From: an uncultured Planctomycetia bacterium
GTDB lineage: Bacteria; Omnitrophota; Gorgyraeia; 1-14-0-20-64-10
NCBI GenBank assembly: GCA_964597545.1
Contig: CAZQXN010000006.1
Span: 13,695 to 77,694, forward strand
Reading direction: 5' to 3'
DNA length: 64,000 bases
Numbering within the stretch: the first letter of the stretch is position 1; the number at the start of each line of letters is the position of its first letter. Below, in pieces: positions 28,701 to 51,179 of the stretch. The notes under the pieces are model-generated. The model was given only the letters and a program-made list of their open reading frames with translations, was not told where the DNA came from and made no database searches. Both the position numbers and the translations under genes were made by a program.

Positions 28701-28720
28701 ATCTCGCCATCTGGATGTAA
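22721..28720 (+). CDS. Giant secreted modular protein A (1999 aa): Sec signal peptide, Ala-rich N-region, coiled coil, about 8 WD40 repeats, C-terminal modules separated by [AS]GQEEG motifs
   Basis: N-terminal signal peptide (LFLTILLASFVLTQPAFA). WD40 repeats (FSPDSRYLASAG.DRTVRLWDVATGSE). Recurrent GLEE/GQEE punctuation at module boundaries. Confidence 0.7.
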   Translation: MKKVNVSFLKRTQPLFLTILLASFVLTQPAFALRASGVDARGQKTVRSGLEETLKRAGAAARAGNPDAALEAGASAVGQLASAAGLLPVAPKPPGFATGLEEDAVADLDQAISYLLRDPEDPDLVNVNDLLAEKNPTDLAKGFRLAAAILGKMTRLLDEETMEVLEALIARGKEETGPVLSAASVAGEALESLPGRAEEASFDALAERYKASGLEERRGMTRREMLIGLAAAGAGLAVGVPTGMFLPRSDSPSAASSAAPDAAQTTPALTWTGAHYEKGRWSSIALTGYPQGAVASLWRAETAPQGQPRSWVLLGSSDPETQPRFGENGRVELRAVPEEIPLEPNQTRIIVVHDVQAWNRLMEASGPENRLDETRLNQLLGDQEFVQTTGLNVTEIAPPDVKYLSAFSVEAKVDELHYGPFGVVLRLVEIQGGSAVGVWRKQNLPHGPEVWSYDPSEGYEVVKDVWAGRGSIRLGANWTKPPLHAGEFRIVIMPNLATWDHWVRSANEMDDFSNKLWMSTEEMDRLASAKLFGPTTAFFVVEVGDRVLQVVSAPPAGLEEQGESLTWRAWMATVGAWGPTRSFLSREVMPADRAALRRQINGLLNRMVRQGYVDNIRPILKHGIPAAVKSLMPMQFTGGTGFGGEHFYSRELDWNKLDFVMDFLFELGIEYPNWSELTSAELVQLVEEATHLYEQAMDYQVEVVLPAEGVRSDIEAAERERMQARAEALKTRGSEVLEHMLSADEIDEAATIANYEEKDPNLEIKRLHRHEAPLREDLERLEEELRQISEEMQQGWRIQHVRIVPAAGLEEVEIVSEPIRQFTGHGQWVYGVAFSPDSRYLASASADETVRLWEVNSGSEVRRFKGHTDRACRVAFSPDSRYLASAGDDRTVRLWDVATGSEVWRFESQEQGMHIHNMAFSPDSRYLTSTGSGKTVRFWDVATGSEIRKFEIGWVYTIAFSPDSRYLASAGGKTIRLWDVDAGSEVWQFEGDDLMMVRAVAFSPDSRYLASAGGDRTVRLWDVATGSEVRQFKGHTNWVYTVAFSPDSRYLASAGEDRMVRLWDVATGSEIRRFESHGKAVRDVVFSPDSRYLTSTGDGNTIRLWESGLTTTGLEEGKSPRPTTAPSFLAATLEASMELASDGPVAVADLTAGVNQRQARQLKESTVADHLHLLWLGGALDRGGSTKRDARYQLARRPSSARLQAVQRYLNGAAGSAVRYSTPSERKALVAQLRNIVYTTDVSRAAKAYTAEGAGAVQTADDLEQIAEALGLSLVMLKPDAIKRRQDRAILDLLWDASRVQIVYIGQQVALDQETQIEPFYEEHREKVFFQVLLDYIGGGEVVPMLVRSTAADESPIDHIARIIGPTNGGFDRVNPASSTPQGIRGALMSARDISSDPSRFPTTNRIHRSSGTYADVVQEAGLAFGGTEALAQIVAARVLKIQPPELASGQEEGETMFDPRWAGLLEQYRLESVEELRSNLLRAFTDPSFAWLTPKMLWQAWLYDEERGFDEAGEAVHIWSYEDIDGALEGYALGQRVEVYPVSTSEVRIDILSPSSHPGARPVGTSSTATVGEIGPKLHAAFTNSHPRSDSRLTPGSLQGIAFYDDTRPMQYGTHFVADITDRTSLRDVLEQYQSDQPVTLSVTGKHKLALTIISASGQEEGKIEREIEEVRERLAVVNHQLALARFVRAETFMDPEPRLPEESAELDEQWHVLVGDLKRLRQEQRAQEMGLTSRTGQEEGVAKPLSELRPSRYLRDDCLVDSNAGTKVFLVSKNQRGSEDVSLINIATRDPLALPVLMLKKYHVLRRRASGQEEAVRQAAHAYLAQPGVLEQLDAAGGSVLLNSAAARRLHPAAMAATLTRAGAPAGVEEPPGLVLSDSNLIPQRNPALRNLAMVPLGSSWQDVENAIQQASPFDLILVEKEAGLSPEVVAAALSQAFGQGPSARAVLADPQQIELISAQALYEVWTDQSLPKVVALGIFLQIQTKAGETFNLAIWM
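25190..26040. repeat. Seven or more tandem near-identical about 126-bp DNA repeats encoding WD40 blades
   Basis: GCCTTCTCCCCTGACAGCCGATACCT(C/T)GCCTCGGCAGG recurs at 25217, 25343, 25474, 25595, 25721, 25847 and 25973 with over 90% identity. Confidence 0.8.
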
Positions 28721-28814
28721 AATCGGTACCAGGTACCAAACCTAACACCGGTACCGGGTACACTTTTCAACAGCGTACCCGGTACCTAGGTTGATCCCCG
28801 ATCAAGTCGGGGAT
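28721..28814. repeat. GGTACC-W-GGTACC palindromic repeat cluster / hairpins downstream of giant gene A
   Basis: GGTACCAGGTACC (28725-37). GGTACCGGGTAC (28750-61) and GTACCCGGTACC (28775-86) form a perfect 12-bp stem. Then the ATCCCCGA-n5-TCGGGGAT hairpin (28794-28814). Confidence 0.7.
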
Positions 28815-28937
28815 GACACCCCCCTAAAAAACGGTGGCGGGCACCGATTCCTGTGATACAATCATTCCTGAATCATCACCCAACAGGCTGGGTATGCGCA
28901 TTCCACACATCTGCACCTCGTACAAAAAGCATTCTGT

Positions 28938-28980
28938 AGCCCTTCGGCTTCCGTAACGAAGTCAAAGGGCTTTTTTTATT
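28938..28980 (+). terminator. Intrinsic-terminator-like hairpin plus T7 run in the leader of the hdrC-kor-hdrA operon (possible attenuator)
   Basis: AGCCCTT-CGG-CTTCG...CGAAG-TCA-AAGGGCT followed by TTTTTTT (28971-28977). Located 1-2 nt before the hdrC start region. Confidence 0.4.
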
Positions 28981-29401
28981 GGCAGACAGGAGGCACGTGG
29001 AGCCCGCAGCAGTAGGCATCCATAGCGAAACGGTAACAAAGGTCTCCCGGATCAGCGGCGAGAATCCCAGAGCCTGTTATCAATGCGGGAAATGCTCTGC
29101 CGGCTGCCCCTCTGCTGACAGTATGGATCATGTTCCGAGCCAGTTCATCAAGCTCATTCAGCTCGGTTTGGAGGATGATCTTAGAGAATCCAATACCCCA
29201 TGGGTGTGCCTGACCTGTTACATCTGCTCTGTGCGCTGCCCCAAGGGTGTTGACATTGCACGCATCATGGAAGCCGGTCGACTCCTTAAAGGCCGAGAGA
29301 ATGTGGATCATGTTGACATCAGGTCCTTGGGGAACACTCTGGAAGAGGATCTTCCACCCATTGCGGTGGTGAGCTGTTTTAGGAAGCATACGGCAAGCTA
29401 A
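28979..29401 (+). CDS. hdrC: Heterodisulfide reductase subunit C-like (two 4Fe-4S motifs)
   Basis: CYQCGKCSAGCP and CLTCYICSVRCP motifs. TTG start per ORF track; an alternative GTG at 28994 follows AGGAGG. Confidence 0.7.
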   Translation: MADRRHVEPAAVGIHSETVTKVSRISGENPRACYQCGKCSAGCPSADSMDHVPSQFIKLIQLGLEDDLRESNTPWVCLTCYICSVRCPKGVDIARIMEAGRLLKGRENVDHVDIRSLGNTLEEDLPPIAVVSCFRKHTAS

Positions 29402-29407
29402 GGGAGT

Positions 29408-30280
29408 GTGATGAAGGTACCTTACTATCCCGGATGCACCTTGAAATCCAATGCCAAGGCCTTTGAGGCCTCTGCGATCGCCTCCATGCGCAGGTTGGGC
29501 ATCGAGATGGAAGAGCTTCCCCGGTGGAACTGCTGCGGAACGGTCTTCTCTTTAGCCTCCGACGATCTCATGCACCATCTTGCCCCTGCCAGGATCCTGC
29601 TTCGCGTCCAGCAGCAGGGGAGCTCCGATGTCGTGACCCTCTGCTCGATGTGTTACAACACCCTCAAGATGACCAATGTTCGGCTGAAGCAGAATCCCGA
29701 AGAGCTTAAAACTCTCAATACCGTCATGTATAAGGAAGAGGGCACCTATGACGGCAAGGTCTCGGTGCATCACCTCTTGAGTTTCCTGAAAGAAAAGGTG
29801 GGCTTCAAGGGGATCAAGGAGCATCTCCAGGCAGACCTGGGGGGACTTAAAGTTGCTCCTTATTATGGGTGTCTTCTTCTGCGCCCCCGGGAGGCCAGCA
29901 TTGACCCCAACATGGAGAATCCGACCATCATGTCGGAATTTATCCAGGCGATCGGGGCAGTACCAGTGACCTTTCCACACCAAACAGAGTGCTGCGGTGC
30001 GTATTTGACTGTAAACGCCAAGGATCTTGTGGCAGAGCGCGCCCGCGGAATCTTAGAATCTGCCAAGCGCGCAGGTGCTGAGCTGGTGCTCACCTCCTGT
30101 CCGCTTTGTCAGTTCAATCTGGAGAAGAGGCAGGCGGAAATCAAGAAGCAGACCCCTGACTTTGTGGGGCTGCCGGTTCTGTATTTCACTCAACTTTTGG
30201 CAGCTGCGATGGGCTTGGATCAGGAAACGTGTGGTTTTGATGTGGACAGCGTAGTGCTGTCTGAGGCTTTGGTCAGGTAG
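29408..30280 (+). CDS. hdrB: Heterodisulfide reductase subunit B-like (two CCG domains)
   Basis: YYPGCTL...WNCCG...CSMCY and YYGCLLLRP...CCGAYL...SCPLCQFNL. Confidence 0.8.
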   Translation: MMKVPYYPGCTLKSNAKAFEASAIASMRRLGIEMEELPRWNCCGTVFSLASDDLMHHLAPARILLRVQQQGSSDVVTLCSMCYNTLKMTNVRLKQNPEELKTLNTVMYKEEGTYDGKVSVHHLLSFLKEKVGFKGIKEHLQADLGGLKVAPYYGCLLLRPREASIDPNMENPTIMSEFIQAIGAVPVTFPHQTECCGAYLTVNAKDLVAERARGILESAKRAGAELVLTSCPLCQFNLEKRQAEIKKQTPDFVGLPVLYFTQLLAAAMGLDQETCGFDVDSVVLSEALVR

Positions 30281-30290
30281 GGCTTTTCTT

Positions 30291-31460
30291 GTGAAGAAGC
30301 GTCAAAATAGCGACAACCAACCTGTCCTAGAGGGGGTTCATTTCTGGCAGGGGGACCTTGCCTGCGCAGAAGGGGCGATCGCTGCCGGCTGCCGTTTCTT
30401 TGCCGGCTACCCGATTACACCGGCCTCAGAGGTTGCCGAGCGGATGGCGCTGAGGCTGCCGCATCTCGGGGGAGTCTATATCCAGATGGAGGATGAGATC
30501 GCCTCCATGGCGGCCATCTTAGGGGGATCATGGAGCGGGGTCAAATCAATGACCGCCACCTCTGGCCCGGGGCTTTCACTCATGCTGGAAAACTTTGGGC
30601 TCGGGATCATGACAGAAACCCCCTGCGTCATTGTAAACGTCCAGCGGGGTTCCCCCTCCACGGGTTTGCCCACCTCTTTTGCGCAATCAGACATGATGCA
30701 GGCCAGGTGGGGTTCTCATGGCGATTACGAGGTGATTGCCTTGGCCCCGGATTCCGCGCAGGAATGTTTTGACCTGACCCTCCAAGCCTTTAATCTCTCC
30801 GAGAAGTATCGGCTGCCCGTCTTTCTGATGACCGACGGTTTGGTGGGTCACATGACTGAGAAGGTGACTGTGCCTGCCGAGGGGAAGCTCAAGGTGCTGC
30901 CCCGGCGAAAAACCAAAAAGCCTGTTGGCCAATACCGCCCCTTTGAGCCTGAGGCAGACCTGGTTCCCTCCATGGCCAATTTTGGTGAAGGACACCGGCT
31001 TCATGCCACAGGGCTCACGCACGACGAAAGGGGTTATCCGGACATGAGCACCGAGGCTCAGCAGGTGCTGGTGAGACGTTTAAGTGAGAAGATCCGGAAG
31101 AATGTCGATGACATCATCATGCTCGAAGAACAGGACATGAAAGAGGCCGAGGTTGTGGTCCTCTCTTACGGGTTAACCTCTCGGGTGGTTCCCCCTGCGG
31201 TGGAGAAGGCCCGGGCCGAGGGGATTCGTGTGGGGCAGATGAGGCTGCTCACTGTCTGGCCCTTCCCTGAGAAGAAGATTGCCGAGGTCTGCAAGCGGGT
31301 CAAGGCATGGGTGGTGCCGGAGATTAATCTCGGGCAGATGGTCAGAGAGGTGGAGCGGGTGGTGGGCCAGCGCTCCAAGGTGATTTCTCTCACCCACGCC
31401 GGCGGCGATGTCCATGATCCTGACGATATCTATAACGCTATCAAGGAAGGGCTGCAGTGA
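30291..31460 (+). CDS. korA: 2-oxoacid (2-oxoglutarate/pyruvate):ferredoxin oxidoreductase alpha subunit
   Basis: GDLACAEGAIAAGCRFFAGYPITPASEV...SMTATSGPGLSLMLENFGLG... is canonical KorA/PorA. Confidence 0.85.
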   Translation: MKKRQNSDNQPVLEGVHFWQGDLACAEGAIAAGCRFFAGYPITPASEVAERMALRLPHLGGVYIQMEDEIASMAAILGGSWSGVKSMTATSGPGLSLMLENFGLGIMTETPCVIVNVQRGSPSTGLPTSFAQSDMMQARWGSHGDYEVIALAPDSAQECFDLTLQAFNLSEKYRLPVFLMTDGLVGHMTEKVTVPAEGKLKVLPRRKTKKPVGQYRPFEPEADLVPSMANFGEGHRLHATGLTHDERGYPDMSTEAQQVLVRRLSEKIRKNVDDIIMLEEQDMKEAEVVVLSYGLTSRVVPPAVEKARAEGIRVGQMRLLTVWPFPEKKIAEVCKRVKAWVVPEINLGQMVREVERVVGQRSKVISLTHAGGDVHDPDDIYNAIKEGLQ

Positions 31461-32290
31461 ATCAGACACAGATGCCTCAGCACCCCTTAGAGCGCTACCT
31501 GCGGATGGACAGGGTACCGCACATCTGGTGTTCCGGCTGCGGCCTGGGAACCATTGCCACCTGCTTTATGAAGGCCCTGGATGAAACAGGGATAGATCCC
31601 GATAAGGTTGTGGTGGTCTCGGGGATTGGATGCACCGGCAGGATTGCAGGGTATGTGAGATTCGATTCCTTCCACACGACACACGGCAGGGCCATCCCCT
31701 TTGCCACTGGGGTTAAGCTCGCCAATCCGGATCTGCACGTGATTGTCTTCTCCGGCGATGGAGACCTATTTGCCATTGGGGGCAATCACCTGATTCATGC
31801 CGCAAGGCGCAACGTCGATATCACCGTATTCTGTGTGAACAACTTTATCTACGGCATGACAGGGGGCCAGGTGGGGCCCACCACGCCCCTTGGAGCGAAA
31901 AGCTCAACCACACCGTACGGCTGTTTTGAGCCGCCCTTTAATCTGCCCTATGTGGCAGAATCCTGCGGTGCGGTTTACGTGGCGAGGTGGACAGCCCTGC
32001 ATTTAAGGCGCATGACCCATTCCATGGGGGAGGCCATCCAGAAGCGCGGTTTCTCCTTTATTGAGGTTGTTTCACCGTGCCCCACCGTTTACTCCAGGTA
32101 CAACCGCTTGGGCGATGGGCTGAAGATGCTCAATTACTATCGCGACAACAGCCGCATCGACAACACAGCCAACACCAAAGACATTCCCCTGGGGGTGGAT
32201 CGCGAGATTGTGGTTGGCAAGTTTGTGGATATGGAGAAACCCACTTTCTTAGATTATCAGCGAGGACAGCTCACCCACCATGAAAGATAG
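31457..32290 (+). CDS. korB: 2-oxoacid:ferredoxin oxidoreductase beta subunit (TPP-binding)
   Basis: WCSGCGLG...SGIGCTGR...VFSGDGDLFAIGGNHLIHAARRNVDITV...GMTGGQ. Confidence 0.85.
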   Translation: MNQTQMPQHPLERYLRMDRVPHIWCSGCGLGTIATCFMKALDETGIDPDKVVVVSGIGCTGRIAGYVRFDSFHTTHGRAIPFATGVKLANPDLHVIVFSGDGDLFAIGGNHLIHAARRNVDITVFCVNNFIYGMTGGQVGPTTPLGAKSSTTPYGCFEPPFNLPYVAESCGAVYVARWTALHLRRMTHSMGEAIQKRGFSFIEVVSPCPTVYSRYNRLGDGLKMLNYYRDNSRIDNTANTKDIPLGVDREIVVGKFVDMEKPTFLDYQRGQLTHHER

Positions 32291-32858
32291 ATACACCGTC
32301 AGGATTGCCGGTTTCGGCGGACAGGGGGTCGTCTTAAGCGGCCTGATTGTCGGCAAGGCCGCCTCCCTCTACGACGGTAAGAGCGCCGCCTTTACCCAGA
32401 GCTACGGCCCTGAAGCCAGGGGTGGGGCCTGCCGGGCGAACGTGGTGATCGAGAAGGGCAAGGTGCGTTACCCTCTGGTCAAGCAGGCCGATGCCCTGAT
32501 CGCACTTTCCAAAGAGGGGTATGAGTGCTACGGCCATGAGGTCGGTCCTGACGCTCTTGTCTTTGTGGACAGCGATCTGGTGAAGGAAGCCCCCATCGAT
32601 AACAAGCGGGTTTTTGGGATTCCGGCCACCCGCCTTGCTGAATCCATGGGGCAAAAGATTGTCGCCAACATCATCATGCTGGGATTCTTCGCCGGAATCA
32701 CTCAGAGCATCTCCAAGGCCGCGATGCTCAAGAGCATCAAAACCTCCGTAAAGGAGGCCTTTGTGGAGATCAACGGTAAGGCTTTTGAGAAAGGCTACAC
32801 CTATCGTGACGCAACCCCAAGCAAACAAGCAGAACGCATACCAGCCCAAAATATTTAA
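32280..32858 (+). CDS. korC: 2-oxoacid:ferredoxin oxidoreductase gamma subunit
   Basis: RIAGFGGQGVVLSGLIVGKAA...QSYGPEARGGACRANVVI. Confidence 0.8.
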   Translation: MKDRYTVRIAGFGGQGVVLSGLIVGKAASLYDGKSAAFTQSYGPEARGGACRANVVIEKGKVRYPLVKQADALIALSKEGYECYGHEVGPDALVFVDSDLVKEAPIDNKRVFGIPATRLAESMGQKIVANIIMLGFFAGITQSISKAAMLKSIKTSVKEAFVEINGKAFEKGYTYRDATPSKQAERIPAQNI

Positions 32859-33090
32859 GGGCACGGTCTATATCCTCAAGGACCGCTGCAAGGGGTGTCA
32901 ATTCTGCATCGACTACTGCCCCAAGAAGATCCTTAAGGTCTCCGAAGATTTCAATGAAAAGGGTTACCACTATCCCATCGTGATCGACGAATCGGCCTGT
33001 GTCAACTGCAAGGTCTGCGAGGACATCTGTCCGGATTTTGCCATATTCTCTATCGCTCGGCAGGGCAGCGATAATGGGAGTCCCCCTTGA
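32806..33090 (+). CDS. korD: 2-oxoacid:ferredoxin oxidoreductase delta subunit (2x[4Fe-4S] ferredoxin)
   Basis: CKGCQFCIDYCP and CVNCKVCEDICP. Start is uncertain: GTG at 32806 chosen; the frame is open from 32761 and overlaps the korC end. Confidence 0.55.
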   Translation: MTQPQANKQNAYQPKIFKGTVYILKDRCKGCQFCIDYCPKKILKVSEDFNEKGYHYPIVIDESACVNCKVCEDICPDFAIFSIARQGSDNGSPP

Positions 33091-35048
33091 GAAGAATAGG
33101 CGTATTTGTCTGTCACTGCGGCGGCAACATCTCCAACGTCGTTGATGTCGAACGGGTTGCCCAGGAGATCGGTAAGCTCCCCGGGGTGGCGCTGTCGACC
33201 ACCAACCGCTACATGTGTTCGGCGCACGGACAGGATCTAATCCGTGCACAGGTCTCCCAGCACGGGTTAGACGGCTTTATCATTGCTGCCTGCTCGCACA
33301 CCCTTCATGAAGCCACCTTCCGCGGGCTGGCCAAGGAGATCGGTCTCAATCCCTACCAGGCAGAGATCTCCAACATCCGAGAGCAGGATTCCTGGGTTCA
33401 CGATGATGCGGAGTTTGCCACACAGAAGGCAGTTCGGATCATTCAGGGTGTCCTAGAGAAACTCAAGCTCAATGAGAGCCTTGACCCGGTCGAGGTTCCG
33501 GTGACCAAAAAGGTCTTGGTGATCGGTGCGGGGATTGCAGGCATGCAGTCGGCCTTGGACATTGCGCATGCAGGCTACGAGGTCACCTTGGTGGAGCGGC
33601 GCGCCACCATCGGCGGACACATGGCTCAGATCTCTAAGACCTTTCCGACGCTGGATTGCTCTCAATGCATCATGACGCCCCGGATGGTGGATGTTGCGCA
33701 CCATGAAAAGATCACACTCTTGACCAACAGTGAGGTTGAGGAGGTTTCCGGGTATGTAGGCAATTTCAAGGTCAAGATTAAGAAGAAGCCCATCTACGTG
33801 GATACCGAGAAGTGCACCCTGTGCAACGAATGCACAGAGGTTTGTCCGGTCGAGGTGGACAGTGAGCATGAGGCGGGCCTCACGAAGCGCAAGGCCATCT
33901 ACATTCCTTTTCCGCAGGCGGTGCCGGCCACCTATACCTTGGATGAGGACAGCTGTCTCGGGCTGCTTCCTTTGGCCTGCGGTGAATGCACCAAGGTGTG
34001 CGAGCCCGAGGCGATCAACTACGATCTGCATTCCGAATTCGTTGAGGATCAATTCGGCGCCATCATCGCGGCAACCGGCTATGAGCTCTACCCCATCTTG
34101 AATCTTAAAGAGTATGGAGCCGGCGAGATTCCCGATGTCATCGACGGCATGCAGTTTGAGCGGCTCCTCTATCAGGACAGCGCCACAAGCTGCGGGATCC
34201 GCAGGCCCTCCGACGGCAAGGTTGCCCGGGACATCGTCTTTGTCCAATGCGCCGGTTCCCGCGACCCCGAGCAGCACAATGCCTTCTGCTCCAAGGTTTG
34301 CTGCATGTACACCTCCAAACAGGCGCTGCTGTTCCAGAGCGCCGCCCCCGAGGGCAAGTCGTACATCTTCTACATCGACATCCGTTCCGGCGGCAAAGGG
34401 TATGAGGAGTTTGTCCAGCGGGTCACCGAGCAAAATGACGTGACCTATTTGCGGGGCAAGGTCTCCAAGATCTTTCGGGAAGAGGACAAGGTGGTGGTTT
34501 GGGGGGCCGATACCCTGACCGGCAAGAAGGTTCAGATCCGCGCGGATCTGGTGGTTCTGGCAACAACGATGATGCCCTCACCGGGGATCAGGGATCTGGC
34601 CGGAAAACTCAGGCTCAATCTCGATCAATATGGATTCACACAGGAGGCCCACCCGAAGCTAAGGCCTGTTGAGAGCCTCTCCGCTGGGATCTTTATGGCC
34701 GGATGCGCCCAAAGTCCCCGGGACATCCCGGATACGGTTTCCCACGCCTCGGGTGCGGCAAGCAAGGTGATGACGATGATCTCCCGCGATGTCTTAGAGC
34801 GGGAGCCGACCATCGCCACGGTGGATGAGACCCTCTGCAGTGGATGTAAGATCTGCATCTCAGTTTGCCCCTACGGGGCCAGGGTATTCCAGGAAGCAAA
34901 GAATGTTGTGGAGGTCAATGCCGCAACCTGTGAGGCGTGCGGCTCCTGCGTGGTGGCGTGCCCCAGCAGCGCCTCGCAGCAGATCAACTGCAACGATGAT
35001 CAGATAAAGGCGATGGTGCAGACAGCACTCTCGGAGCAAAAGTCATGA
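33087..35048 (+). CDS. hdrA: Heterodisulfide reductase subunit A-like flavoprotein
   Basis: IGVFVCHCGGNIS...VLVIGAGIAGMQSALD...FPTLDCSQCIMTP... plus multiple ferredoxin motifs. HdrA. Confidence 0.85.
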   Translation: MRRIGVFVCHCGGNISNVVDVERVAQEIGKLPGVALSTTNRYMCSAHGQDLIRAQVSQHGLDGFIIAACSHTLHEATFRGLAKEIGLNPYQAEISNIREQDSWVHDDAEFATQKAVRIIQGVLEKLKLNESLDPVEVPVTKKVLVIGAGIAGMQSALDIAHAGYEVTLVERRATIGGHMAQISKTFPTLDCSQCIMTPRMVDVAHHEKITLLTNSEVEEVSGYVGNFKVKIKKKPIYVDTEKCTLCNECTEVCPVEVDSEHEAGLTKRKAIYIPFPQAVPATYTLDEDSCLGLLPLACGECTKVCEPEAINYDLHSEFVEDQFGAIIAATGYELYPILNLKEYGAGEIPDVIDGMQFERLLYQDSATSCGIRRPSDGKVARDIVFVQCAGSRDPEQHNAFCSKVCCMYTSKQALLFQSAAPEGKSYIFYIDIRSGGKGYEEFVQRVTEQNDVTYLRGKVSKIFREEDKVVVWGADTLTGKKVQIRADLVVLATTMMPSPGIRDLAGKLRLNLDQYGFTQEAHPKLRPVESLSAGIFMAGCAQSPRDIPDTVSHASGAASKVMTMISRDVLEREPTIATVDETLCSGCKICISVCPYGARVFQEAKNVVEVNAATCEACGSCVVACPSSASQQINCNDDQIKAMVQTALSEQKS

Positions 35049-35470
35049 CTGCGCCCCAGGCGTTTGAGCCTAAGATCGTCGGTTTCTTGTGCAAATGGTG
35101 CACCTCGGCAGCGGCCGATTTGGCCGGGGTGAGCCGATTAAAGTATCAGCCCAATGCTGTTAACATCCGGGTGATGTGTTCCTCCCGGGTGGATCCGGTG
35201 CATATCATGGAGGCCTTCCGGAATGGGGCCGATGGGGTATTCATTGGGGGCTGCCACCCCGGGGACTGCCATTATGTGACCGGCAACACTCAGACCCAGA
35301 GGCGGATCGCCATCCTCCATAAGATACTTGAGCCCATGGGGATTGAGCCCGAGCGCTTGAGGCTTGAGTGGATTTCTGCTTCGGAGGGGACAAAATTTCA
35401 GAATGCCATGAATGAATTCATCGATACCGTAAGGGCCATGGGCCCGTATAAAGCGTATGCCCAAGTCTAA
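35045..35470 (+). CDS. mvhD: Methyl-viologen-reducing hydrogenase delta subunit MvhD
   Basis: KIVGFLCKWCTSAAADLAGVSR...IRVMCSSRVDP...GADGVFIGGCHPGDCHY. Confidence 0.85.
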   Translation: MTAPQAFEPKIVGFLCKWCTSAAADLAGVSRLKYQPNAVNIRVMCSSRVDPVHIMEAFRNGADGVFIGGCHPGDCHYVTGNTQTQRRIAILHKILEPMGIEPERLRLEWISASEGTKFQNAMNEFIDTVRAMGPYKAYAQV

Positions 35471-36176
35471 GTCTCAAGAGGCGGCTGTGCCTGCCGCGGG
35501 CGTCAGAGATGTGACGGTCTACATCATGGGCAAGCCGTACAGCGTGCCCTCGGACAAGACCATCATGGGCGCGATTCATCATGTGGGCTACCAGCTGATC
35601 CGCGGCGCAGGCTGCCGGGAAGGTTTCTGCGGGGCATGCTCCACCATCTATCGCATGCCCGGCGATTACAAGTTCCACACGGCCCAGGCCTGCACCAAAC
35701 TGGTCGAGGACAAAATGTACCTCGCCCAGATCCCCTTTGTCCCCGCGGATAGGCCCATCTACGATCTGGATGCGCTCAAGCCCGAGGCAGCTACCTTTGA
35801 GAAGATCTTTCCTGAAACCTTCCGGTGCTTGGCGTGCAACACCTGCACCAAGGCCTGCCCGCAGGACATTCAGGTCATGGATTATATTCAGGCGGTGATC
35901 CGCAATGACGTGGCCGCTTGCGCGGATCTCTCCTTTGACTGCATTGCCTGCGGGATGTGCGCGATTCGGTGCCCGGCAGAGATTACCCAGCACCAGGTGG
36001 GTCTTTTGGCCAGGCGGCTCACAGGGAAGTACTTGAGCCCCAAGGGAAAGCATCTCCCCGCTCGCATTGCCGAGGTTGAGCAGGGCCGCTATAAGAGCGA
36101 GATCAAGGAGATGATGGGTACGGAAAAGAGCCGCCTCAAGGAGCAGTACCACAGCCGGGACATCGAGCCCGAATGA
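35457..36176 (+). CDS. Fumarate reductase/succinate dehydrogenase iron-sulfur subunit-like (soluble; 2Fe-2S plus two 4Fe-4S-type motifs)
   Basis: CREGFCGACS...C (plant-type 2Fe-2S). CLACNTCTKACP and CIACGMCAIRCP. No membrane-anchor genes nearby. Confidence 0.7.
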   Translation: MPKSKSQEAAVPAAGVRDVTVYIMGKPYSVPSDKTIMGAIHHVGYQLIRGAGCREGFCGACSTIYRMPGDYKFHTAQACTKLVEDKMYLAQIPFVPADRPIYDLDALKPEAATFEKIFPETFRCLACNTCTKACPQDIQVMDYIQAVIRNDVAACADLSFDCIACGMCAIRCPAEITQHQVGLLARRLTGKYLSPKGKHLPARIAEVEQGRYKSEIKEMMGTEKSRLKEQYHSRDIEPE

Positions 36177-36200
36177 GATTTAAAGAGGAATCCTTCGCCC

Positions 36201-37868
36201 ATGTATCCTGAGTTCATGCAGCAGTCCCTCAAAAAGGTTGAAAAGAGTCGGCCCGAGAGGCTCAAGCTCGCCAAATCCGGCAAGCCGATATTCCCGATCA
36301 TGTCTGCCAAAGAGCGGGAGGCTGTCTTAAGCTCCTCTCACCCTGACTATAAGAAGGAAAGCCGAAGGGTTGTTCGGGTGGGGCCCAATGCAGGGGAGAT
36401 GCTGACCACACCGGTTGCAGACATCCTGGAGGCGCGCCCCAGGATAGATGTGAACGATATTGACTTAAAGAAGGCCGATGCAACAACGGATCTTTTAATC
36501 ATCGGCGGTGGCGGGGCAGGGTGTGCGGCGGCGATTACGGCCCGGCAAGAGGGGGTCAAATCCACGATTGTGACCAAGCTTCGGCTCGGCGATGCCAACT
36601 CGATGATGTCTCAGGGGGGCATTCAGGCAGCCGTCAATCCCAACGATTCCCCCACCCGGCATTATCTCGATGCCATCGGGGGAGGCCACTTTGACAACAA
36701 GCCGGAGTTGGTTGAGGCCCTGGTCAACGATGCCCCCGGAGTGATCCAGTGGCTTGAGGATTTGGGGGTTATGTTTGACAAGGATGAGGCAGGCGAGCTC
36801 AAGACCTTTCCCTTTGGAGGATATTCCCGAAAGCGGATGCTCTCCTGCCGCGACTATACCGGCATGGCGATCATGCGCTGCCTCATGGATGAAATCAAGA
36901 ATTACCCCGATGAGATTGCCATCCAGGAATTCTCCTCTGCTGTGGAGCTCCTATTGGATGAAAAGGGGCGCTGCGCCGGGGCGGTGCTCTACAACATGGA
37001 GACTGAGGAGTACACGACCATCCAGGCTCGAGCCACCCTCATTGCCACCGGCGGTTTCGGCAGGCTCCACATCTCCGGCTTTGACACCACCAATCATTAC
37101 GGGGCCACGTGCGACGGTGTGGTGATCGCCTATCGGGCCGGGGCGAAGCTGTTGTACATGGATTCGGTTCAGTATCACCCCACCGGGGCCGTCTACCCCG
37201 AGCAGATCGCAGGCTTCCTGGTCACCGAGAAGGTCAGGGGCGGCGGCGGGCAGCTCTTAAACCGCGAGGGAGAGATCTTTGTCTATCCCAAGGAGCCGCG
37301 GGATGTTGAAACCGCCGCGATCATCCGGGAGTGCCAAGCAAAGAAGAGGGGCATTCAGGATAACTACGGCCGACATGGAGTATGGCTGGACTCCCCGATC
37401 ATCGATGAGATCCACGGCGCCGGTTTCATTGCCGCAAATTATCCGGCCATGGTCAGGCAGTTTGGGAAGTTCAACATCGATATCGTCCGAGAGCCGATGC
37501 TGGTTTATCCGACCCTGCATTATCAAAACGGCGGCATTGAGATCAACGTCAAGTGCGAGACCAATATCCCAGGTCTTTTTGTCGCCGGCGAAGCCTCCGG
37601 CGGCCTCCATGGCAGGAACCGCCTGATGGGTAATTCCGTGTTGGATTACAACGTCTTCGGCAAGAGGGCAGGGGTCCAGGCCGCCGAGTGCGCCAAGAAG
37701 GCTAAGGTGGGCAAGCTCTCCCTGGAGCACGTCAAGAAATTTGAAGCCCAAATGAAGAAGGCGCGCATTGTGACCGACAGGATCTCCCCGGTGTTGCTTC
37801 CCAACTACACCCCTGAGGTTATCAAGGAGCGGCAGCTCACTTCGCATTACGTGGGAACACTCAGATGA
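36201..37868 (+). CDS. Fumarate reductase/succinate dehydrogenase flavoprotein subunit-like (FAD-binding)
   Basis: DLLIIGGGGAGCAAAI (FAD GxGxxG) ...QGGIQAA...H...R motifs of SdhA/FrdA/TfrA-type flavoproteins. Confidence 0.75.
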   Translation: MYPEFMQQSLKKVEKSRPERLKLAKSGKPIFPIMSAKEREAVLSSSHPDYKKESRRVVRVGPNAGEMLTTPVADILEARPRIDVNDIDLKKADATTDLLIIGGGGAGCAAAITARQEGVKSTIVTKLRLGDANSMMSQGGIQAAVNPNDSPTRHYLDAIGGGHFDNKPELVEALVNDAPGVIQWLEDLGVMFDKDEAGELKTFPFGGYSRKRMLSCRDYTGMAIMRCLMDEIKNYPDEIAIQEFSSAVELLLDEKGRCAGAVLYNMETEEYTTIQARATLIATGGFGRLHISGFDTTNHYGATCDGVVIAYRAGAKLLYMDSVQYHPTGAVYPEQIAGFLVTEKVRGGGGQLLNREGEIFVYPKEPRDVETAAIIRECQAKKRGIQDNYGRHGVWLDSPIIDEIHGAGFIAANYPAMVRQFGKFNIDIVREPMLVYPTLHYQNGGIEINVKCETNIPGLFVAGEASGGLHGRNRLMGNSVLDYNVFGKRAGVQAAECAKKAKVGKLSLEHVKKFEAQMKKARIVTDRISPVLLPNYTPEVIKERQLTSHYVGTLR

Positions 37869-38851
37869 GCAAACCTAAGGTTGCCCTCTATTGGTGTGCC
37901 AGCTGCGGCGGATGCGAGGAGTCTGTTGTCGACTTGGCTGAAGACATCCTGACAGTCACGGATGCCATCGACATCGTATTCTGGCCGGTGGCGATGGACT
38001 TCAAATATTCCGATGTCGAAGCCATGGCCGATGGCGAGCTCACCGCCACACTTGTCAACGGTGCCATCCGAACCGATGAGCAGGAGCGCATCGCCAAGCT
38101 CTTAAGACGCAAATCCCAGCTCATTATCGCCCACGGAAGCTGCGCCCATCTGGGGGGTGTCGTGGGGCTGGCCAACTTCTACAAGCGGGAAGATGTTCTT
38201 GGGCGCGCCTACACCGAGGTTCCAAGTGTCAACAACCCCAAGAAGACGCTGCCTCAGGTGCAAACCAAAGAGTCCGGCAATGAGCTGGAGCTGCCCGGTT
38301 TTCACGGCTCGGTCAAAGCCCTGGATCAAGTGATAGAGGTGGACTATTATCTGCCGGGCTGTCCCACGCCGCCTGCGCTCATCAAGACAGCGGTTATGGC
38401 GATCCTTGAGGGGAAGTTGCCTCCCAAGGGGACGGTCATAGCGGAGCAAAAGTCGCTGTGCGACACCTGCATTCTCAAGGAGAGCAAGCCCGATGAGATT
38501 GCGGTCAAGCGGTTCAAAAGGGTCTATGAGACTGAGTGGGACTCGACCAAGTGTTTTTTGGACCAGGGGATCATCTGCTTGGGGCCTGCAACGCGAGGGG
38601 GCTGCGACTCCAGGTGCATCAAGGCGAACATGCCCTGCCGGGGCTGCTTTGGACCCACCGAGGCGGTCACAGATCAGGGTGCCAAGTTCTTGTCGGCCTT
38701 GGCCTCTTGTATCAGTTCGGACAACGGCGAGGAGTTGAGCGCCATCGTCAATTCCATCCCTGACCCTGCGGGGCTCTTCTACCGCTACAGCTTAGCCTCA
38801 TCGACGCTGAAGGCCGGAGCAGGCAAAAAGAAAGTAGAGGTCAATGAGTAA
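37865..38851 (+). CDS. mvhG: [NiFe] hydrogenase small subunit (F420-non-reducing hydrogenase MvhG-like)
   Basis: KVALYWCASCGGCEES...HGSCAHLGG...PGCPTPP...CRGCFGP. Confidence 0.8.
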   Translation: MSKPKVALYWCASCGGCEESVVDLAEDILTVTDAIDIVFWPVAMDFKYSDVEAMADGELTATLVNGAIRTDEQERIAKLLRRKSQLIIAHGSCAHLGGVVGLANFYKREDVLGRAYTEVPSVNNPKKTLPQVQTKESGNELELPGFHGSVKALDQVIEVDYYLPGCPTPPALIKTAVMAILEGKLPPKGTVIAEQKSLCDTCILKESKPDEIAVKRFKRVYETEWDSTKCFLDQGIICLGPATRGGCDSRCIKANMPCRGCFGPTEAVTDQGAKFLSALASCISSDNGEELSAIVNSIPDPAGLFYRYSLASSTLKAGAGKKKVEVNE

Positions 38852-40307
38852 GCGCATCACGATCGATCCGATTACCCGCCTGGAAGGTCACGGCAAGATC
38901 GACATTCTGCTTAATTCCAAAGGGGATGTGGAGAGGGCTTATTTTCAGGTTCCGGAGTTCAGGGGTTTTGAGAAATTCTCAGAGGGTAGAGCCGCCGAAG
39001 AGATGCCGGCCTTGACTCAGAAGATATGCGGCGTATGTCCTACCGCGCACCACACAGCCTCCTCCAAGGCGCTGGACGATCTCTTCAAGGTGGAGCCCCC
39101 GCCGGCTGCCAAGAAGATCAGAGAGCTGGTCTATAACGCCTTCATGTTTGAGGACCACCTGCTTCATTTCTATGTCTTGGGCGGCCCCGACTTTGTGGTG
39201 GGCCCCGACGCCCCCAAGACTGAGCGCAATATCTTAGGGGTCATCGGCAAGGTGGGGGTGGATATCGGTAAACAGGTCATCGATATCCGCAAACGGGTGC
39301 GGGGCATCATGACCCTTATCAGTGGCAGCCCCCTCTATCCGGTCAACGGCCTTCCCGGCGGGGTCTCAAAATCCCTGACTGAGGAGGACCGCTCCGCGAT
39401 CAAGGAAGTCGTTGACGACACCGTAGATTTTGCCAAGTTCACCTTGAAGATCTTTGAGGACATTGTTCTTAAGAACAAAGAATACGTCAGCCTCGTCACC
39501 GGCGATATCTATAAACATAAGACCTACTACATGGGGCTGGTGGATGAGAAGAACCGCGTCAACTTTTATGACGGCAAGGTCCGGGTTGTAGACCCTGACG
39601 GTCGGGAGTACGTGAAGTTTGAAGGTAAGGATTACTTAAAGCACTTGGAAGAGCGCGTTGAACCCTGGAGCTACTTGAAGCTCCTCTATCTTAAGGGGGT
39701 GGGATGGAAGGGTTTTGCAGACGGCAAGGACAACGGCGTCTATCGTGTCGCCCCCTTGGCCCGCCTCAATGCCTCTGACGGCATGGCGACCCCCTCGGCC
39801 CAGGCAGAATATGAGCGCATGTATGACACCTTAGGGGGAAAGCCGGTTCACAATACCCTCGCCTATCACTGGGCCAGGCTTGTTGAGGTGATGTATGCCG
39901 CTGAAAGGATGGGTGAGCTGGTGAACGACCCTGAGCTGACTGACCCCAAGGTCAGAAATATCCCCACCCAGGCACCCAGTGAAGGGGTGGGGGTGTGTGA
40001 GGCCCCTCGGGGAACCCTCTTCCATCACTATCAGACCGATTCCAACGCCATCATCCAAAAGACCAACTTGCTGGTTGCTACACAGAACAATGCTGCGGCA
40101 ATGTGCCTCTCCATTGAGAAGGCCGCCAAGGGGCTCATCAAACGCGGCAAGGCGGATGACGGTCTTCTCAACATGGTTGAGATGGCCTTTAGGGCCTACG
40201 ATCCCTGCCTTGCCTGCGCCACACATGCCATTGACGGCGGCCCCGCCCTTGAGATTGTCCTTCACAGCGCAGACGGCAAAGCCCACCAATCCATCAAGAA
40301 TTTCTGA
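38844..40307 (+). CDS. mvhA: [NiFe] hydrogenase large subunit (MvhA-like)
   Basis: N-terminal RLEGHG...RICGVCPTAHH and C-terminal DPCLACATHAI nickel-binding motifs. Confidence 0.85.
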   Translation: MSKRITIDPITRLEGHGKIDILLNSKGDVERAYFQVPEFRGFEKFSEGRAAEEMPALTQKICGVCPTAHHTASSKALDDLFKVEPPPAAKKIRELVYNAFMFEDHLLHFYVLGGPDFVVGPDAPKTERNILGVIGKVGVDIGKQVIDIRKRVRGIMTLISGSPLYPVNGLPGGVSKSLTEEDRSAIKEVVDDTVDFAKFTLKIFEDIVLKNKEYVSLVTGDIYKHKTYYMGLVDEKNRVNFYDGKVRVVDPDGREYVKFEGKDYLKHLEERVEPWSYLKLLYLKGVGWKGFADGKDNGVYRVAPLARLNASDGMATPSAQAEYERMYDTLGGKPVHNTLAYHWARLVEVMYAAERMGELVNDPELTDPKVRNIPTQAPSEGVGVCEAPRGTLFHHYQTDSNAIIQKTNLLVATQNNAAAMCLSIEKAAKGLIKRGKADDGLLNMVEMAFRAYDPCLACATHAIDGGPALEIVLHSADGKAHQSIKNF

Positions 40308-40391
40308 GCCGCTAAGTCAGGCGTCATCCTAACCCTCTGGAGGAAAAGGCATTGCCAATTCGTTAGTAGTAATACTATTTAGTTTGACCGC

Positions 40392-40420
40392 TTGTAATTT
40401 TACAAAAAACAAGGTAAACT
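40392..40420 (+). promoter_or_regulatory. sigma70-like promoter of giant gene B (TTGTAA-17-TAAACT)
   Basis: AT-rich. TAAACT 40415-40420 is preceded by G as in gene A. The upstream TTAGTAGTAAT box is shared with A and C. Confidence 0.4.
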
Positions 40421-40448
40421 TATACCCACGACACGGAAAACTCCCCGA

Positions 40449-43400
40449 ATGAAGCACAACATACGCACCCTTCAACCGATAGCCGCACTTCTTGCCTTCA
40501 CGCTGGCCTGTCCGAACTCTGTCTATGCTATGCGACAGGAAGGGCCAGACTCCAAGACGGTTCGATCCGGCCTGGAAGAGGCTCTAAAAGCCGGTCCTGG
40601 CGCCACCCTGGAATACATAGAATACGGCGCCACACGCCTGACGCAAGCCCTCACCCCACCCAGCCCAGCCCCTCTATTCTCCGGCCAGGAGGAGGAGATG
40701 ACGAGCCGAACGGGCATCCACGCCGCTAAGTTCTATTTGTTGCCATTATTAGCGGAAGAGGGTTCAGTTAACACGCTAACCTATCCGGGTGGCACACCCC
40801 TTAATCTTAGACAGCTCCACAGTGATGCTGACACAGCGCTCACTATAGCCTTGATACGTGTCTTTGATGGACTAAGACTTCGTCAGGAAACAGGGGCGGT
40901 CGTAATAAGCATCGATAGAAAGACGAAGGTTGCCCACATAACGCAACTTTCCGCCGGCCAGGAGGAGGTGGAGACTATTTCCGAGCCGCTCAGACAATTC
41001 GCGAGCAACGATGAGGTGCTTGATATAGCCCTCTCCCCCGACGGCCAATTTATCGCTTCTGCAGGCTTGGATGGGACAGTTTGCCTCTGGAATGTCGGCA
41101 GTGGCGAGCCGGCTTGGAAGTACACAGGCCATACCAGCAAGGTGAATGCTGTGGACTTTTCCCCTGACGGTCGATATCTCGCTTCCGCAGGCCCAGACAG
41201 AGTTATCCGCATCCTGGATGCCGAGAATGGACGGGGGGTGCACTGGCTTAGGGGGCATTTCGATGAGGTGCTTGACGTGGACTTCTCCCCAAACAGCCGA
41301 ACCCTTGCCTCAACGAGCATGTTTGGGACGATTTACCTTTGGAGTGTTGAAAGCGGAAAGAAGTTCCGGGAGATTGGGCACCACAACGGTGTAGCGGTGA
41401 ATACCATCGATTTCTCCCCTGACGGGCGACACATTGTCTCAGGTAACATCCATGGAGATGTTGATCTCTGGAGTGTTGCCAGCGGCAGGATAGCTGGACA
41501 ATTCGAAGGGCACCACCTTGATGTACCTGTCGTGCTCTTTTCCTCTGACGGTCGATATCTTGCCACCGGAAGTAGTGACGACAGGACGGTTCGCCTCTGG
41601 GATGCTGAAAGCAGGCAAGAGCTTTGGCAGTCCAAAGCGGGAGAGCTCTTTAACGTAGCATTTTCCCCTGATAACCAACGTCTTGTCTCGACAAGCACCA
41701 ACGGGATGGTTCATCTTTGGGATGTTGCCAGCGGCAAGGAGCTGCGACGGTTTAAGGCGGGTACTCATAACATCTGGATGTTTGATGCGGTCTTCTCCCC
41801 TGACGGCCGGCAGATTATTACAGGGGATTCGGACAGCATGATTCGTGTCTGGCCGAGCGGCATGCACAGTGCCGGCCAGGAGGAATGGGTTGATATTACA
41901 GTTCCCATGTTGCAGCGCTTACATGCCAATAATCTGGTGCGGGTGGATGACCGGACTTTTCGCTTGGCCAGTAAAACTATGGATGGAACCTGGCAAGGCG
42001 CTGATGAAGAGAGCGGAGGCCCTCTGCAGCCCTTAAGCAAGGTAGATCTCCTCTCAGGGCAGGTGCTGCTTGAGGCCGGCCAAGAGGAGGGCAAGGTGGT
42101 TATGCGTACTCTCCGGCGACTTCAGGCTGCCTACGCGAGTCTTGGCAGCGCCACGGACAGCGGATCCCCTCTGCCGGCAGACGCGCAGGAAGCAACAAGG
42201 GCGGCGTACGAGCAGGTCCTGCAAGATGTCTACCGCTTAGCCAGGCCTGGCGTTGACGCGGGAACAATCGATCAGGCGTGGAATGGGTACAAAAGAGTGG
42301 CTGAGACAGTTCGGTCAGACACATTTTCCGGAACGTCTACCGAAGGCCTTGCTCTGTTGACCGGAGAGTTGAAAAACGTTGCCGCATTGCTGCAAGAGTC
42401 CGAAGATACCGCCGGCCAGGAGGAGGGGCAGGGGGATGTGGTGCAGAGTAACCTCTCTGCTCATGAGGCAGGCGAGCTTCTTGCCAAGGCGCTCAGCCCA
42501 ACCCTGTTCCATTTGCTTCGGTTGGGGCGTCAATACCGGGATGTGCAAATGCCTGATAATCAGCCGCTGACGTATACAACCCCAGCTCTCTTTGCGTCCG
42601 CGGTTTTCACAACGCTAGAGAGGATCAAAGCCAACGGCAGATGGACGGTTACCTTCCCAGCCCAAGGCGAGATCGCTGTGGTGACTGCGCATGAGGAGGC
42701 TGTTGGCCAGGAGGAGACGGTCGCGCCCCCTGAGGACTGGGACCGGATAGGAACTATCCGTACCGACTCAGATATTACCAACCTTCTGGCTCAGCGCGGA
42801 TATGGCCTTCTTTCCCCGGACGGAGACCCCTATCAGTATGTATCACATGATAAGCAACAGGTAGACATCGCCCCTTCGCTTTCCGATTCTTCATTAGGAG
42901 ATTCTTTCGGAAAACCCCGAGCTGAGTTTGAAGGGTGGCACGTTTATTCTTCGCTTCTATCAGCGCGGAAAGCTGCACAAAGAATTCGCCACGCCCGCCG
43001 GGAACAATCCTCCGGCCAAGAGGAGGGAACTGTAGCTGAGGCCTTGGTTTCCGAGAGCCGAGATCAGCCTCTTCCTCCGGAGAAAGTCATCGAGGCGATC
43101 TTGGGAGAATTGAATGAGTCGAGAGAAGTTGGGATTCGCTTCATTTGGGATAGCAACTTTGACTTTGGGATTGTTGATGAAACCCAGCCTCTTCATGATT
43201 TTGTGCATCTCAAATTTCTTCCTCGGATAGGACCTTCAGACCCAGTCCCATACGATGAGATCCGTCGGGTTGTTCCGGTCGGTCGATACATTGCGCTTCT
43301 TTCGAAAGCTGCTCAATCTGAGTTGAAAGCTACAGTTGAAGTCGCTAGGTACTCCCCCACAACCGGGCAGCTTGTTCGATTCAGCGGAGATCTTGACCAT

Positions 43401-45343: not shown

Positions 45344-45423
45344 AAATCGGTACCAGGTACCAAAAGCGAAGATCGGTACCAGGTACCAAGAGCAAAAATC
45401 GGTACCTGGTACCGTTAGTTTTT
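45344..45423. repeat. Three tandem ATCGGTACC-W-GGTACCAA palindromic units (about 26-bp period) forming a perfect 13-bp hairpin plus T-run between convergent genes
   Basis: GGTACCAGGTACC at 45349-61 and 45375-87. GGTACCTGGTACC at 45401-13; the A and T versions are exact reverse complements. Then GTTAGTTTTT. Confidence 0.75.
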
Positions 45424-51171: not shown

Positions 51172-51179
51172 CCTTAAAG

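Follow-up and report, generated by a model that had tools for sequence, protein, structure and literature searches.

A hydrogenase-heterodisulfide reductase operon interleaved with Kor and fumarate-reductase-like genes: a candidate electron-bifurcating module for two reductive TCA steps

Which reactions are joined by a gene cluster in which the subunits of a hydrogenase and a heterodisulfide reductase (Hdr) alternate with those of a CO2-fixing enzyme and a fumarate-reductase-like pair? This question is raised by a 64,000-nucleotide (nt) stretch of DNA, hereafter the window, from an uncultured bacterium labeled Planctomycetia and placed by GTDB in the Omnitrophota (contig CAZQXN010000006.1 of assembly GCA_964597545.1, positions 13,695 to 77,694). 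Twelve of its genes encode HdrABC, the [NiFe]-hydrogenase module MvhADG, a four-subunit 2-oxoacid:ferredoxin oxidoreductase (Kor) and two proteins that we refer to as FrdB-like and FrdA-like (together FrdBA). We propose, with moderate confidence, that the products of this operon bifurcate electrons from H2 at the flavin of HdrA and thereby serve two steps of the reductive tricarboxylic acid (rTCA) cycle. The constancy of the interleaved core in other genomes, its swappable inputs and its surroundings of TCA genes argue strongly, on comparative grounds, for joint work by Hdr, Kor and FrdBA.

A conserved interleaved core with exchangeable donor modules

When one genome per species was scanned, 509 species genomes had a member of the FrdA-like family. 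The 12 window proteins were then mapped on the best 80 loci and on further contigs, among which 55 loci were informative, being non-redundant and having enough upstream sequence. HdrCB, the four-subunit Kor, HdrA and MvhD adjoin FrdBA in all 55, and the sole apparent exception to this synteny sits at a 100-N scaffold gap. The initial annotation of this DNA had suggested searching other genomes for the same gene order, and the interleaved core does recur, whichever donor module accompanies it. Only the donor module varies among the loci, and we therefore view the core as one machine with exchangeable inputs.

The most frequent donor module is FlxCBA, situated between MvhD and FrdB in 41 of the 55 loci, in records labeled Aminicenantes, "Eubacteriales," Bacteroidales, Anaerolineae, Candidatus (Ca.) Desulfaltia, Acidobacteriota, Rhodospirillales and Gammaproteobacteria. 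MvhGA follows FrdA in the window and in four further loci, from an Omnitrophota genome and metagenome contigs; two loci, L003 (a Planctomycetia metagenome-assembled genome, MAG) and L005, end at or just past FrdA and are partly informative. Eight of the 55 loci have no donor module in cis, their neighbors being a spermidine-synthase-like gene upstream and PilZ/glyQS/gcv genes downstream, and the two that end without downstream sequence were not counted for donor type. In one Flx-type locus (L002, a "Clostridiales" MAG), TusA and DsrE-like (DrsE_2) genes adjoin FrdA on the opposite strand (11786-12518, -); these are possible candidates for a sulfur relay or thiol carrier.

The length of the FrdA-like protein is almost fixed at 555 aa throughout the family, with 65-77% identity between records labeled as very different phyla, which points to tight constraint on the structure, to spread of the module as a unit by horizontal transfer, or to the two together. 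The nearest labeled relatives of the window protein are in Planctomycetia and Omnitrophota MAGs (76% identity). Overall, the core was found in records labeled Aminicenantes/Acidobacteriota, Omnitrophota, Planctomycetia, Bacteroidales, Anaerolineae, classes of Pseudomonadota and Ca. Desulfaltia.

Close relatives of the window locus have TCA genes on either side of the 12 genes and on the same strand: mdh, sucC and sucD precede them, and hycI, a gene for a DRTGG/AAA_26 protein and a citrate synthase gene follow. The specificity of Kor for 2-oxoglutarate/succinyl-CoA is a putative, contextual assignment, based on sucCD lying directly upstream in relatives and on the presence of 2-oxoglutarate synthases among the PDB relatives. 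In the Mvh-type relatives L083, L085, L087 (~14600-17500) and L001 (14966-16057), hycI is followed by a conserved CbiA/AAA_26/DRTGG protein of ~365 aa, which presumably resembles the N-terminal domain of phosphotransacetylase. L085 and L087 also have citrate synthase downstream and malate dehydrogenase upstream, neighbors that hint at a reversed oxidative TCA context. The functional tie among Hdr, Kor, the Frd-like pair and the hydrogenase, and the reductive direction, both put forward in the initial annotation, are supported by the synteny in 55 of 55 loci, by mdh-sucCD and citrate synthase in relatives, and by the loss of a flavin-binding histidine from FrdA-like (see below).

The window copy is, to judge from its gene packing, a real operon. 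Its 12 + strand ORFs (open reading frames) are all co-directional in the ORF listing of the window and span 28979-40307, and their Pfam and NCBIfam matches give the order hdrC-hdrB-korABCD-hdrA-mvhD-FrdB-like-FrdA-like-mvhG-mvhA (Table 1). The junctions from hdrC to mvhA are, in order, +6, +10, -4, -11, -98, -4, -4, -14, +24, -4, and -8 nt, with overlaps of the ATGA type (-4 nt) at four of them. The korC/korD overlap of -98 nt is counted from the opening of the korD ORF and is at least -53 nt if translation begins at GTG 32806, the last in-frame start that is possible. The hdrC-like gene has an alternative GTG start at 28997, preceded by AGGAGG.

This is the layout that had been claimed from the sequence, including the four-subunit Kor between HdrB and HdrA, where we found genes with POR_N/PFOR_II, TPP_enzyme_C, POR and 2x Fer4 domains. 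The description of an anchor-less FrdB/FrdA pair between MvhD and MvhG stands as to position and as to the anchor, since profile scans gave no match to a membrane-anchor family for any of the 12 operon proteins, whereas the name "FrdB" is carried by cysteine motifs and gene position and not by an SdhB/FrdB profile. Consensus scans for internal promoter-like and terminator-like sites gave counts at or below the shuffle expectation, which is weak evidence either way, and an Rfam scan of 28000-41000 returned zero RNA elements. A hairpin (AGCCCTT...AAGGGCT, then seven T; 28938-28978, +), also with no Rfam match, ends 1 base before the annotated hdrC start and could terminate or attenuate transcription at the boundary of the giant gene upstream and the operon.

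Table 1. Genes of the 12-gene operon, with positions in the window and principal profile matches.
Gene	Assignment	Position	Strand	Basis
hdrC-like	2x[4Fe-4S] protein	28979..29401	+	140 aa; Fer4_17/Fer4_8; TIGR03290 HdrC 68 bits, below cut-off
hdrB-like	Protein with two CCG domains	29408..30280	+	CCG 70.6 bits in 2 stretches
korA	2-oxoacid:ferredoxin oxidoreductase, alpha	30291..31460	+	POR_N + PFOR_II; NF006412 570 bits vs. cut-off 411
korB	Beta, thiamine pyrophosphate (TPP)-binding	31457..32290	+	TPP_enzyme_C 121 bits; best NCBIfam OGOR (2-oxoglutarate:ferredoxin oxidoreductase) beta 256 bits, below cut-off
korC	Gamma	32280..32858	+	POR 116 bits; NF006323 187 bits, below cut-off
korD	Delta, 2x[4Fe-4S] ferredoxin-like	32806..33090 (ORF opens 32761)	+	2x Fer4; best OGOR_delta 71 bits, below cut-off
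hdrA	Presumed bifurcating flavin adenine dinucleotide (FAD)/Fe-S subunit	33087..35048	+	Full length, 653 aa; HdrA2 model 740 bits over 3-651
mvhD (FlpD)	[2Fe-2S] adaptor, donor module to HdrA	35045..35470	+	FlpD 179.8 bits, full profile
FrdB-like	Fe-S protein	35457..36176	+	239 aa; CREGFCGAC...C (2Fe-2S-type) plus CLACNTCTKACP and CIACGMCAIRCP (two 4Fe-4S motifs)
FrdA-like	Flavoprotein	36201..37868	+	555 aa; FAD_binding_2 269 bits
mvhG	[NiFe]-hydrogenase small subunit	37865..38851	+	Oxidored_q6; best NCBIfam VhuG 201 bits
mvhA	[NiFe]-hydrogenase large subunit	38844..40307	+	NiFeSe_Hases; best NCBIfam VhuA 375 bits

Proposed electron flow

The subunits expected of a bifurcating hydrogenase are present in the operon. 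HdrA is full length, having besides its FAD domain all three Fe-S domains (N-terminal, inserted and C-terminal), and its residues 3-651 align with residues 13-656 of the solved bifurcating methanogen HdrA (8rvu_a; 627 bits), that is, end to end. MvhA has a Ni-Fe ligand motif near each end (KICGVCPTAHH, N-terminal; DPCLACATH, C-terminal), and its C-terminal tail would, if it behaves like those of other [NiFe] large subunits, be removed by a maturation protease. All four Kor subunit types (alpha, TPP-binding beta, gamma and the 2x4Fe-4S delta) are encoded together, and KorA matches 1yd7 (E = 8e-116) and the 2-oxoglutarate synthase 8ys5 (E = 4e-79) in the PDB. The HdrB-like protein retains 10 of the 10 cysteines of two CX31CCX35CXXC motifs, as read from its sequence against the family conservation line, and its NCBIfam matches (CoB_CoM_SS_B, 178 bits; an SdhE-type anchor family, 145 bits) are both below cut-off. 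The HdrC-like protein is without the C-terminal extension of its paralog encoded at 46237 (140 vs. 196 aa) and is 43% identical to HdrC2 over 75 aa.

According to our proposal, H2 would be oxidized at MvhAG and its electrons would pass via MvhD onto the flavin of HdrA. The high-potential electron would then travel through HdrC, HdrB and FrdB-like to a non-covalent FAD in FrdA-like, where fumarate would be reduced to succinate, while the low-potential electron would leave through the ferredoxin domains of HdrA for KorD and KorABC, directly or by way of a ferredoxin, and be used to convert succinyl-CoA and CO2 into 2-oxoglutarate. Two H2 would yield one fumarate reduction (to succinate) and one carboxylation (to 2-oxoglutarate), with succinyl-CoA synthetase joining both steps. 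This stoichiometry would fit the pathway because the rTCA cycle needs the two steps 1:1. The potentials of H2 and fumarate are -414 and +33 mV, respectively, and Kor needs about -500 mV; the low-potential branch should be affordable because electron transfer from H2 to fumarate releases far more energy than reaching about -500 mV requires. Gene content, the interleaved synteny with its swappable donor module, and the active-site and cofactor motifs are observed; that the proteins form a complex, bifurcate electrons, pass them by way of HdrB and work in this direction is inferred.

A stricter version of this proposal is that all 12 proteins form one hard-wired megacomplex in which the two non-cubane HdrB clusters are a pure relay to FrdBA and KorD is docked on HdrA, with neither a thiol nor free ferredoxin taking part. 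Such an assembly would have a parallel in the methanogen Fmd-Hdr-Mvh supercomplex, and either H2 or NADH could be plugged in as its donor; we put it forward tentatively, as somewhat doubtful in this full form.

A full autotrophic rTCA cycle need not be present, as the reductive branch to 2-oxoglutarate or a reversed oxidative cycle uses the same two steps; the former is used by methanogens. The initial annotation had named a genome lacking other rTCA enzymes among the findings that would refute its interpretation, which is too strict because the reductive branch to 2-oxoglutarate needs exactly the same two enzymes.

If the proposal is true, the hardest energetic step of the rTCA cycle, the supply of electrons at ~-500 mV to 2-oxoglutarate synthase, would be paid for 1:1 by fumarate reduction, which releases more energy than any other step of the cycle, and the cost in ATP and ion gradient of CO2 fixation or 2-oxoglutarate biosynthesis in anaerobes would be lower. 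Fumarate would also become one of the few terminal acceptors for HdrA-type bifurcation, and Kor would be, after Fmd-Hdr, a second case of a CO2-fixing enzyme connected directly to a bifurcase. Being widespread and having interchangeable H2 and NADH inputs, the module is a good target for biochemistry, and one of its carriers, Thioflavicoccus mobilis, is cultivable.

The FrdB-like and FrdA-like pair and the direction of flow

FrdBA is, as far as its sequences indicate, a soluble fumarate-reductase-like module. FrdB-like has a CX4CX2C...C motif plus two CX2CX2CX3CP motifs, and every motif cysteine is invariant in family alignments. Because of these conserved motifs, one 2Fe-2S and two 4Fe-4S clusters are predicted, and the third cluster is predicted to be 4Fe-4S and not 3Fe-4S because CIACGMCAIRCP has four cysteines. 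No CCG domain was found in FrdB-like by Pfam scan or in its sequence. FrdA-like aligns to SdhA, FrdA and NadB over residues 97-500, with SdhA/FrdA as its best sequence matches. It has a 96-aa N-terminal extension that is conserved in the family, and it gave no match to Succ_DH_flav_C (PF02910) at E <= 1e-3. The catalytic and dicarboxylate-binding residues H326 (QYHPTG), T342/E343, R367 (PRDV), H440 (HYQNGG) and R472 (GRNRL) are invariant in 32 relatives; the assignment of R367 depends on re-registering PRDV by hand against the GRDV of SdhA, since HMMER set a 7-residue length difference in that segment.

The best NCBIfam match of FrdA-like is TfrA (NF004900), with 363.7 bits against a cut-off of 718 and an alignment that ends at profile position 427 of 546. 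Different segments of the TfrB profile match FrdB-like, HdrC-like and HdrB-like, so that the profile is split over three genes. Two more specific identities for FrdBA were considered and rejected. It is not a true thiol:fumarate reductase, as FrdB-like has no CCG domain and FrdA-like is far below the TfrA cut-off; for the same two reasons we regard the published name "TfrAB" as a misnomer. Nor is it a respiratory complex II, as it is without an anchor, the covalent-FAD histidine and the 3Fe-4S motif.

The clearest pointer to the direction of flow comes from the flavin site. Asn133 of FrdA-like aligns with His45 of SdhA, the histidine to which FAD is covalently bound, and the Asn is near-invariant family-wide. 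Loss of the covalent FAD bond, as in His44 variants of E. coli FrdA and in soluble fumarate reductases, abolishes succinate oxidation and keeps fumarate reduction. Because FrdA-like is without this histidine family-wide, the fumarate-reducing direction is favored.

Several points weigh against our proposal. FrdA-like is under every NCBIfam Frd, Tfr and NadB cut-off and FrdB-like is under every curated Frd and Tfr cut-off; FrdB-like gave no SdhB/Fer2_3 match by sequence, and comparison of its family profile with the PDB gave generic 2x[4Fe-4S] matches only. The AlphaFold2 models of both proteins would also count here, as they are of low confidence: that of FrdA-like has a mean pLDDT (predicted local distance difference test) of 65, with SdhA/FrdA as best fold matches, and that of FrdB-like has a mean of 54, its N-terminal ~78 aa resembling NuoG-type 2Fe-2S domains with a best E of ~0.01; we do not rely on either model. 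The complete disulfide-reducing cysteine site of HdrB appears to leave room for a thiol/disulfide substrate. As to other rTCA enzymes, sucCD, mdh, fumarase, ATP-citrate lyase (ACL; aclAB), citrate synthase, acn and idh were all absent from the part of the window ORFs that was scanned; mdh, sucCD and citrate synthase lie beside the cluster in relatives, where citrate synthase would fit an oxidative cycle equally well. Finally, the literature searched yielded neither biochemistry nor structures nor transcript data, whether on this organism or on an Mvh-type cluster of any other.

That both CCG motifs of HdrB are complete could mean that the operon encodes co-regulated but separate enzymes. Mvh-Hdr would then reduce a disulfide carrier and free ferredoxin, Kor would take the ferredoxin, and the thiol would reduce fumarate via HdrB and FrdBA acting as a split thiol:fumarate reductase. 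The spread of the TfrB profile over FrdB-like, HdrC-like and HdrB-like would suit such an arrangement, as would the TusA and DsrE-like genes beside FrdA in L002, and a thiol route is permitted by published models. However, FrdB-like is without CCG and there is a single HdrB, which would have to make and consume the same thiol, in effect direct electron transfer. Furthermore, no carrier gene conserved in the cluster was found among the loci compared, and the interleaved order is retained in all 55 across the donor swaps. We consider separate enzymes unlikely on balance.

Alternatively, bifurcation could run in reverse. Electrons from 2-oxoglutarate (at Kor) and succinate (at FrdAB) would merge at HdrA and leave as H2 (through Mvh) or NADH (through Flx), which would let the TCA cycle run oxidatively under anaerobic conditions as long as H2 pressure is low. 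The citrate synthase, mdh and sucCD genes that adjoin the cluster in relatives are compatible with such confurcation, as is the fact that many carriers are labeled Aminicenantes, which are usually taken as fermenters, and by established thermodynamics a mean donor potential of ~-240 mV could suffice for the H+/H2 couple when H2 is at about 1 Pa. Against this stands the family-wide absence from FrdA-like of the covalent-FAD histidine, which known family members need for succinate oxidation. The reaction is also thermodynamically marginal, being endergonic at standard conditions by ~+30 kJ with NAD+ (potential of NAD+/NADH, -320 mV) as acceptor. In addition, group 3c Mvh hydrogenases are known for H2 uptake, and the Endoriftia symbiont expresses its cluster alongside rTCA genes. 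Oxidative confurcation is therefore, in our opinion, quite improbable.

If FrdAB acted on a substrate other than fumarate, such as another enoate or dicarboxylate, or aspartate, the cluster would not be an rTCA module. The scores under all curated Frd, Tfr and NadB cut-offs would be explained in this way, along with the unusual 96-aa extension, the lack of a recognizable Succ_DH_flav_C domain and the dissimilarity of FrdB to SdhB by sequence. We regard a different substrate as highly improbable, nonetheless, based on the fact that the six SdhA/FrdA catalytic and dicarboxylate-binding residues are all invariant, that SdhA/FrdA are the best matches by both sequence and fold, that sucCD and mdh adjoin the cluster in relatives, and that NadB enzymes work without an Fe-S partner.

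Described relatives and surroundings of the operon

The window adds a further member to a described gene cluster, of a kind that is biochemically uncharacterized. In tubeworm symbionts (Ca. Endoriftia and the Escarpia symbiont) and in Thioflavicoccus mobilis, korABCD and "tfrAB" are interspersed with flxABCD-hdrABC, and a complex that passes electrons directly to OGOR and fumarate reductase was proposed (Rubin-Blum, Dubilier and Kleiner, 2019; PMC6315080); at that time the cluster was given the status of a "rare variant." That the Endoriftia cluster is an operon was later suggested by expression patterns and transcribed intergenic regions, with tfrAB outside the shared differential-expression pattern (Mitchell et al., 2024; PMC11636981). 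For Ca. Celaenobacter (Cloacimonadota), an Mvh version that also includes fumarase and succinyl-CoA synthetase genes was read as an H2-driven rTCA module (Williams et al., 2021; PMC8542988). The model was restated in a 2026 survey (PMC13147460), and a 2023 preprint reported the cluster in Bipolaricaulia. The novelty implied in the initial annotation was consequently overstated, as the same cluster and idea had been published for the Flx version (PMC6315080, PMC11636981) and the Mvh version (PMC8542988). Our search of the literature on such clusters found no purification, assay or structure, and searches on "bifurcating fumarate reductase" and on Aminicenantes with Hdr and Frd found nothing relevant. 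The present analysis adds the distribution over 509 species genomes, in contrast to the status of "rare variant," the three kinds of donor arrangement, the recognition of "TfrAB" as a misnomer, and the family-wide loss of the covalent-FAD histidine.

The tubeworm-symbiont clusters share with the window the interleaved hdrCB, four-subunit kor, hdrA, mvhD/flxD and two-gene FrdBA, and the same mechanism has been proposed for them. Two of our loci, L080 and L081 (Rhodospirillales and Gammaproteobacteria MAG labels), resemble the symbiont arrangement and have FrdA proteins 63-67% identical to that of the window. The symbiont clusters differ in their donor, NADH via FlxABC as opposed to H2 via MvhGA, and in also holding aclAB, acn, idh, pntAB and rnf, none of which was found in the window ORFs scanned. 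Compared by description, the Ca. Celaenobacter cluster is like the window in combining a group 3c Mvh, Hdr, OGOR and fumarate reductase; it is from another phylum, includes fumarase and succinyl-CoA synthetase, and was drawn with a heterodisulfide shuttle of the coenzyme M/coenzyme B (CoM/CoB) type, in contrast to the direct wiring considered here. A further partial counterpart is the "succinate operon" of Pseudoclostridium thermosuccinogenes, in which Flx-Hdr lies beside a two-gene fumarate reductase and NADH-dependent fumarate reduction coupled to ferredoxin reduction was proposed (Koendjbiharie and van Kranenburg, 2019 preprint; PMC7282089). As described, that operon differs from the window in having no Kor genes and in serving fermentative succinate production.

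All six subunit types of the methanogen MvhADG-HdrABC complex (PDB 5odc, 7bkb, 8rvu) are encoded in the window operon, with HdrA homologous end to end, and the methanogen Fmd supercomplex sets a precedent, as its low-potential branch supplies a CO2-reducing enzyme directly. The partners differ, however, being CoM-S-S-CoB and Fmd in methanogens as opposed to the proposed fumarate (through FrdBA) and Kor, and in the window HdrC is shortened and the methanogen equivalog cut-offs are not reached. Methanothermobacter TfrAB is a soluble fumarate reductase without an anchor, as the window pair would be, and its TfrA is the best NCBIfam match of FrdA-like. TfrB is reportedly predicted to have a 2Fe-2S cluster, two 4Fe-4S clusters and two CCG motifs, a set that equals that of FrdB-like and HdrB-like together. 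The CCG motifs are fused within TfrB, whereas in the window they are on a separate HdrB, and FrdA-like has in addition the 96-aa N-terminal extension.

A second, canonical cluster (hdrC-hdrB-hdrA-mvhD-mvhG-mvhA) starts at 46237, within the region 46237-58304 (+), and is without kor or frd genes. Its subunits are 37-63% identical to their counterparts in the first cluster, and its presence implies that the organism keeps an ordinary Mvh-Hdr beside the one containing Kor and Frd. Downstream of it are genes for a likely maturation protease (52700-53194, called from its GNDIQGDDAVG motif alone), a HypA-HypF fusion (53158-55926), HypD and HypE.

The window also has three giant + strand ORFs at 22721-28720, 40449-45326 and 58439-63715 (1999, 1625, and 1758 aa, respectively), of which the first two encode WD40 beta-propeller proteins and adjoin the operon on its two sides, in the places where relatives have mdh-sucCD and hycI/citrate synthase. 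Immediately 3' of the stop of each giant ORF are two to three tandem copies, ~26 nt apart, of the repeat AATCGGTACCWGGTACCAAA (28722-28790, 45345-45415, and 63728-63772), which is also present at 46113-46130 and 13914-13931. The interval that separates the second giant gene from the second hdr cluster encodes an ORF6N-domain protein (45415-45933, -); this domain is common in mobile elements, and the gene would hint at local rearrangement. The sequence GGTACC occurs 28 times in the window, compared with 6.9 expected, a count that was reached by no shuffle.

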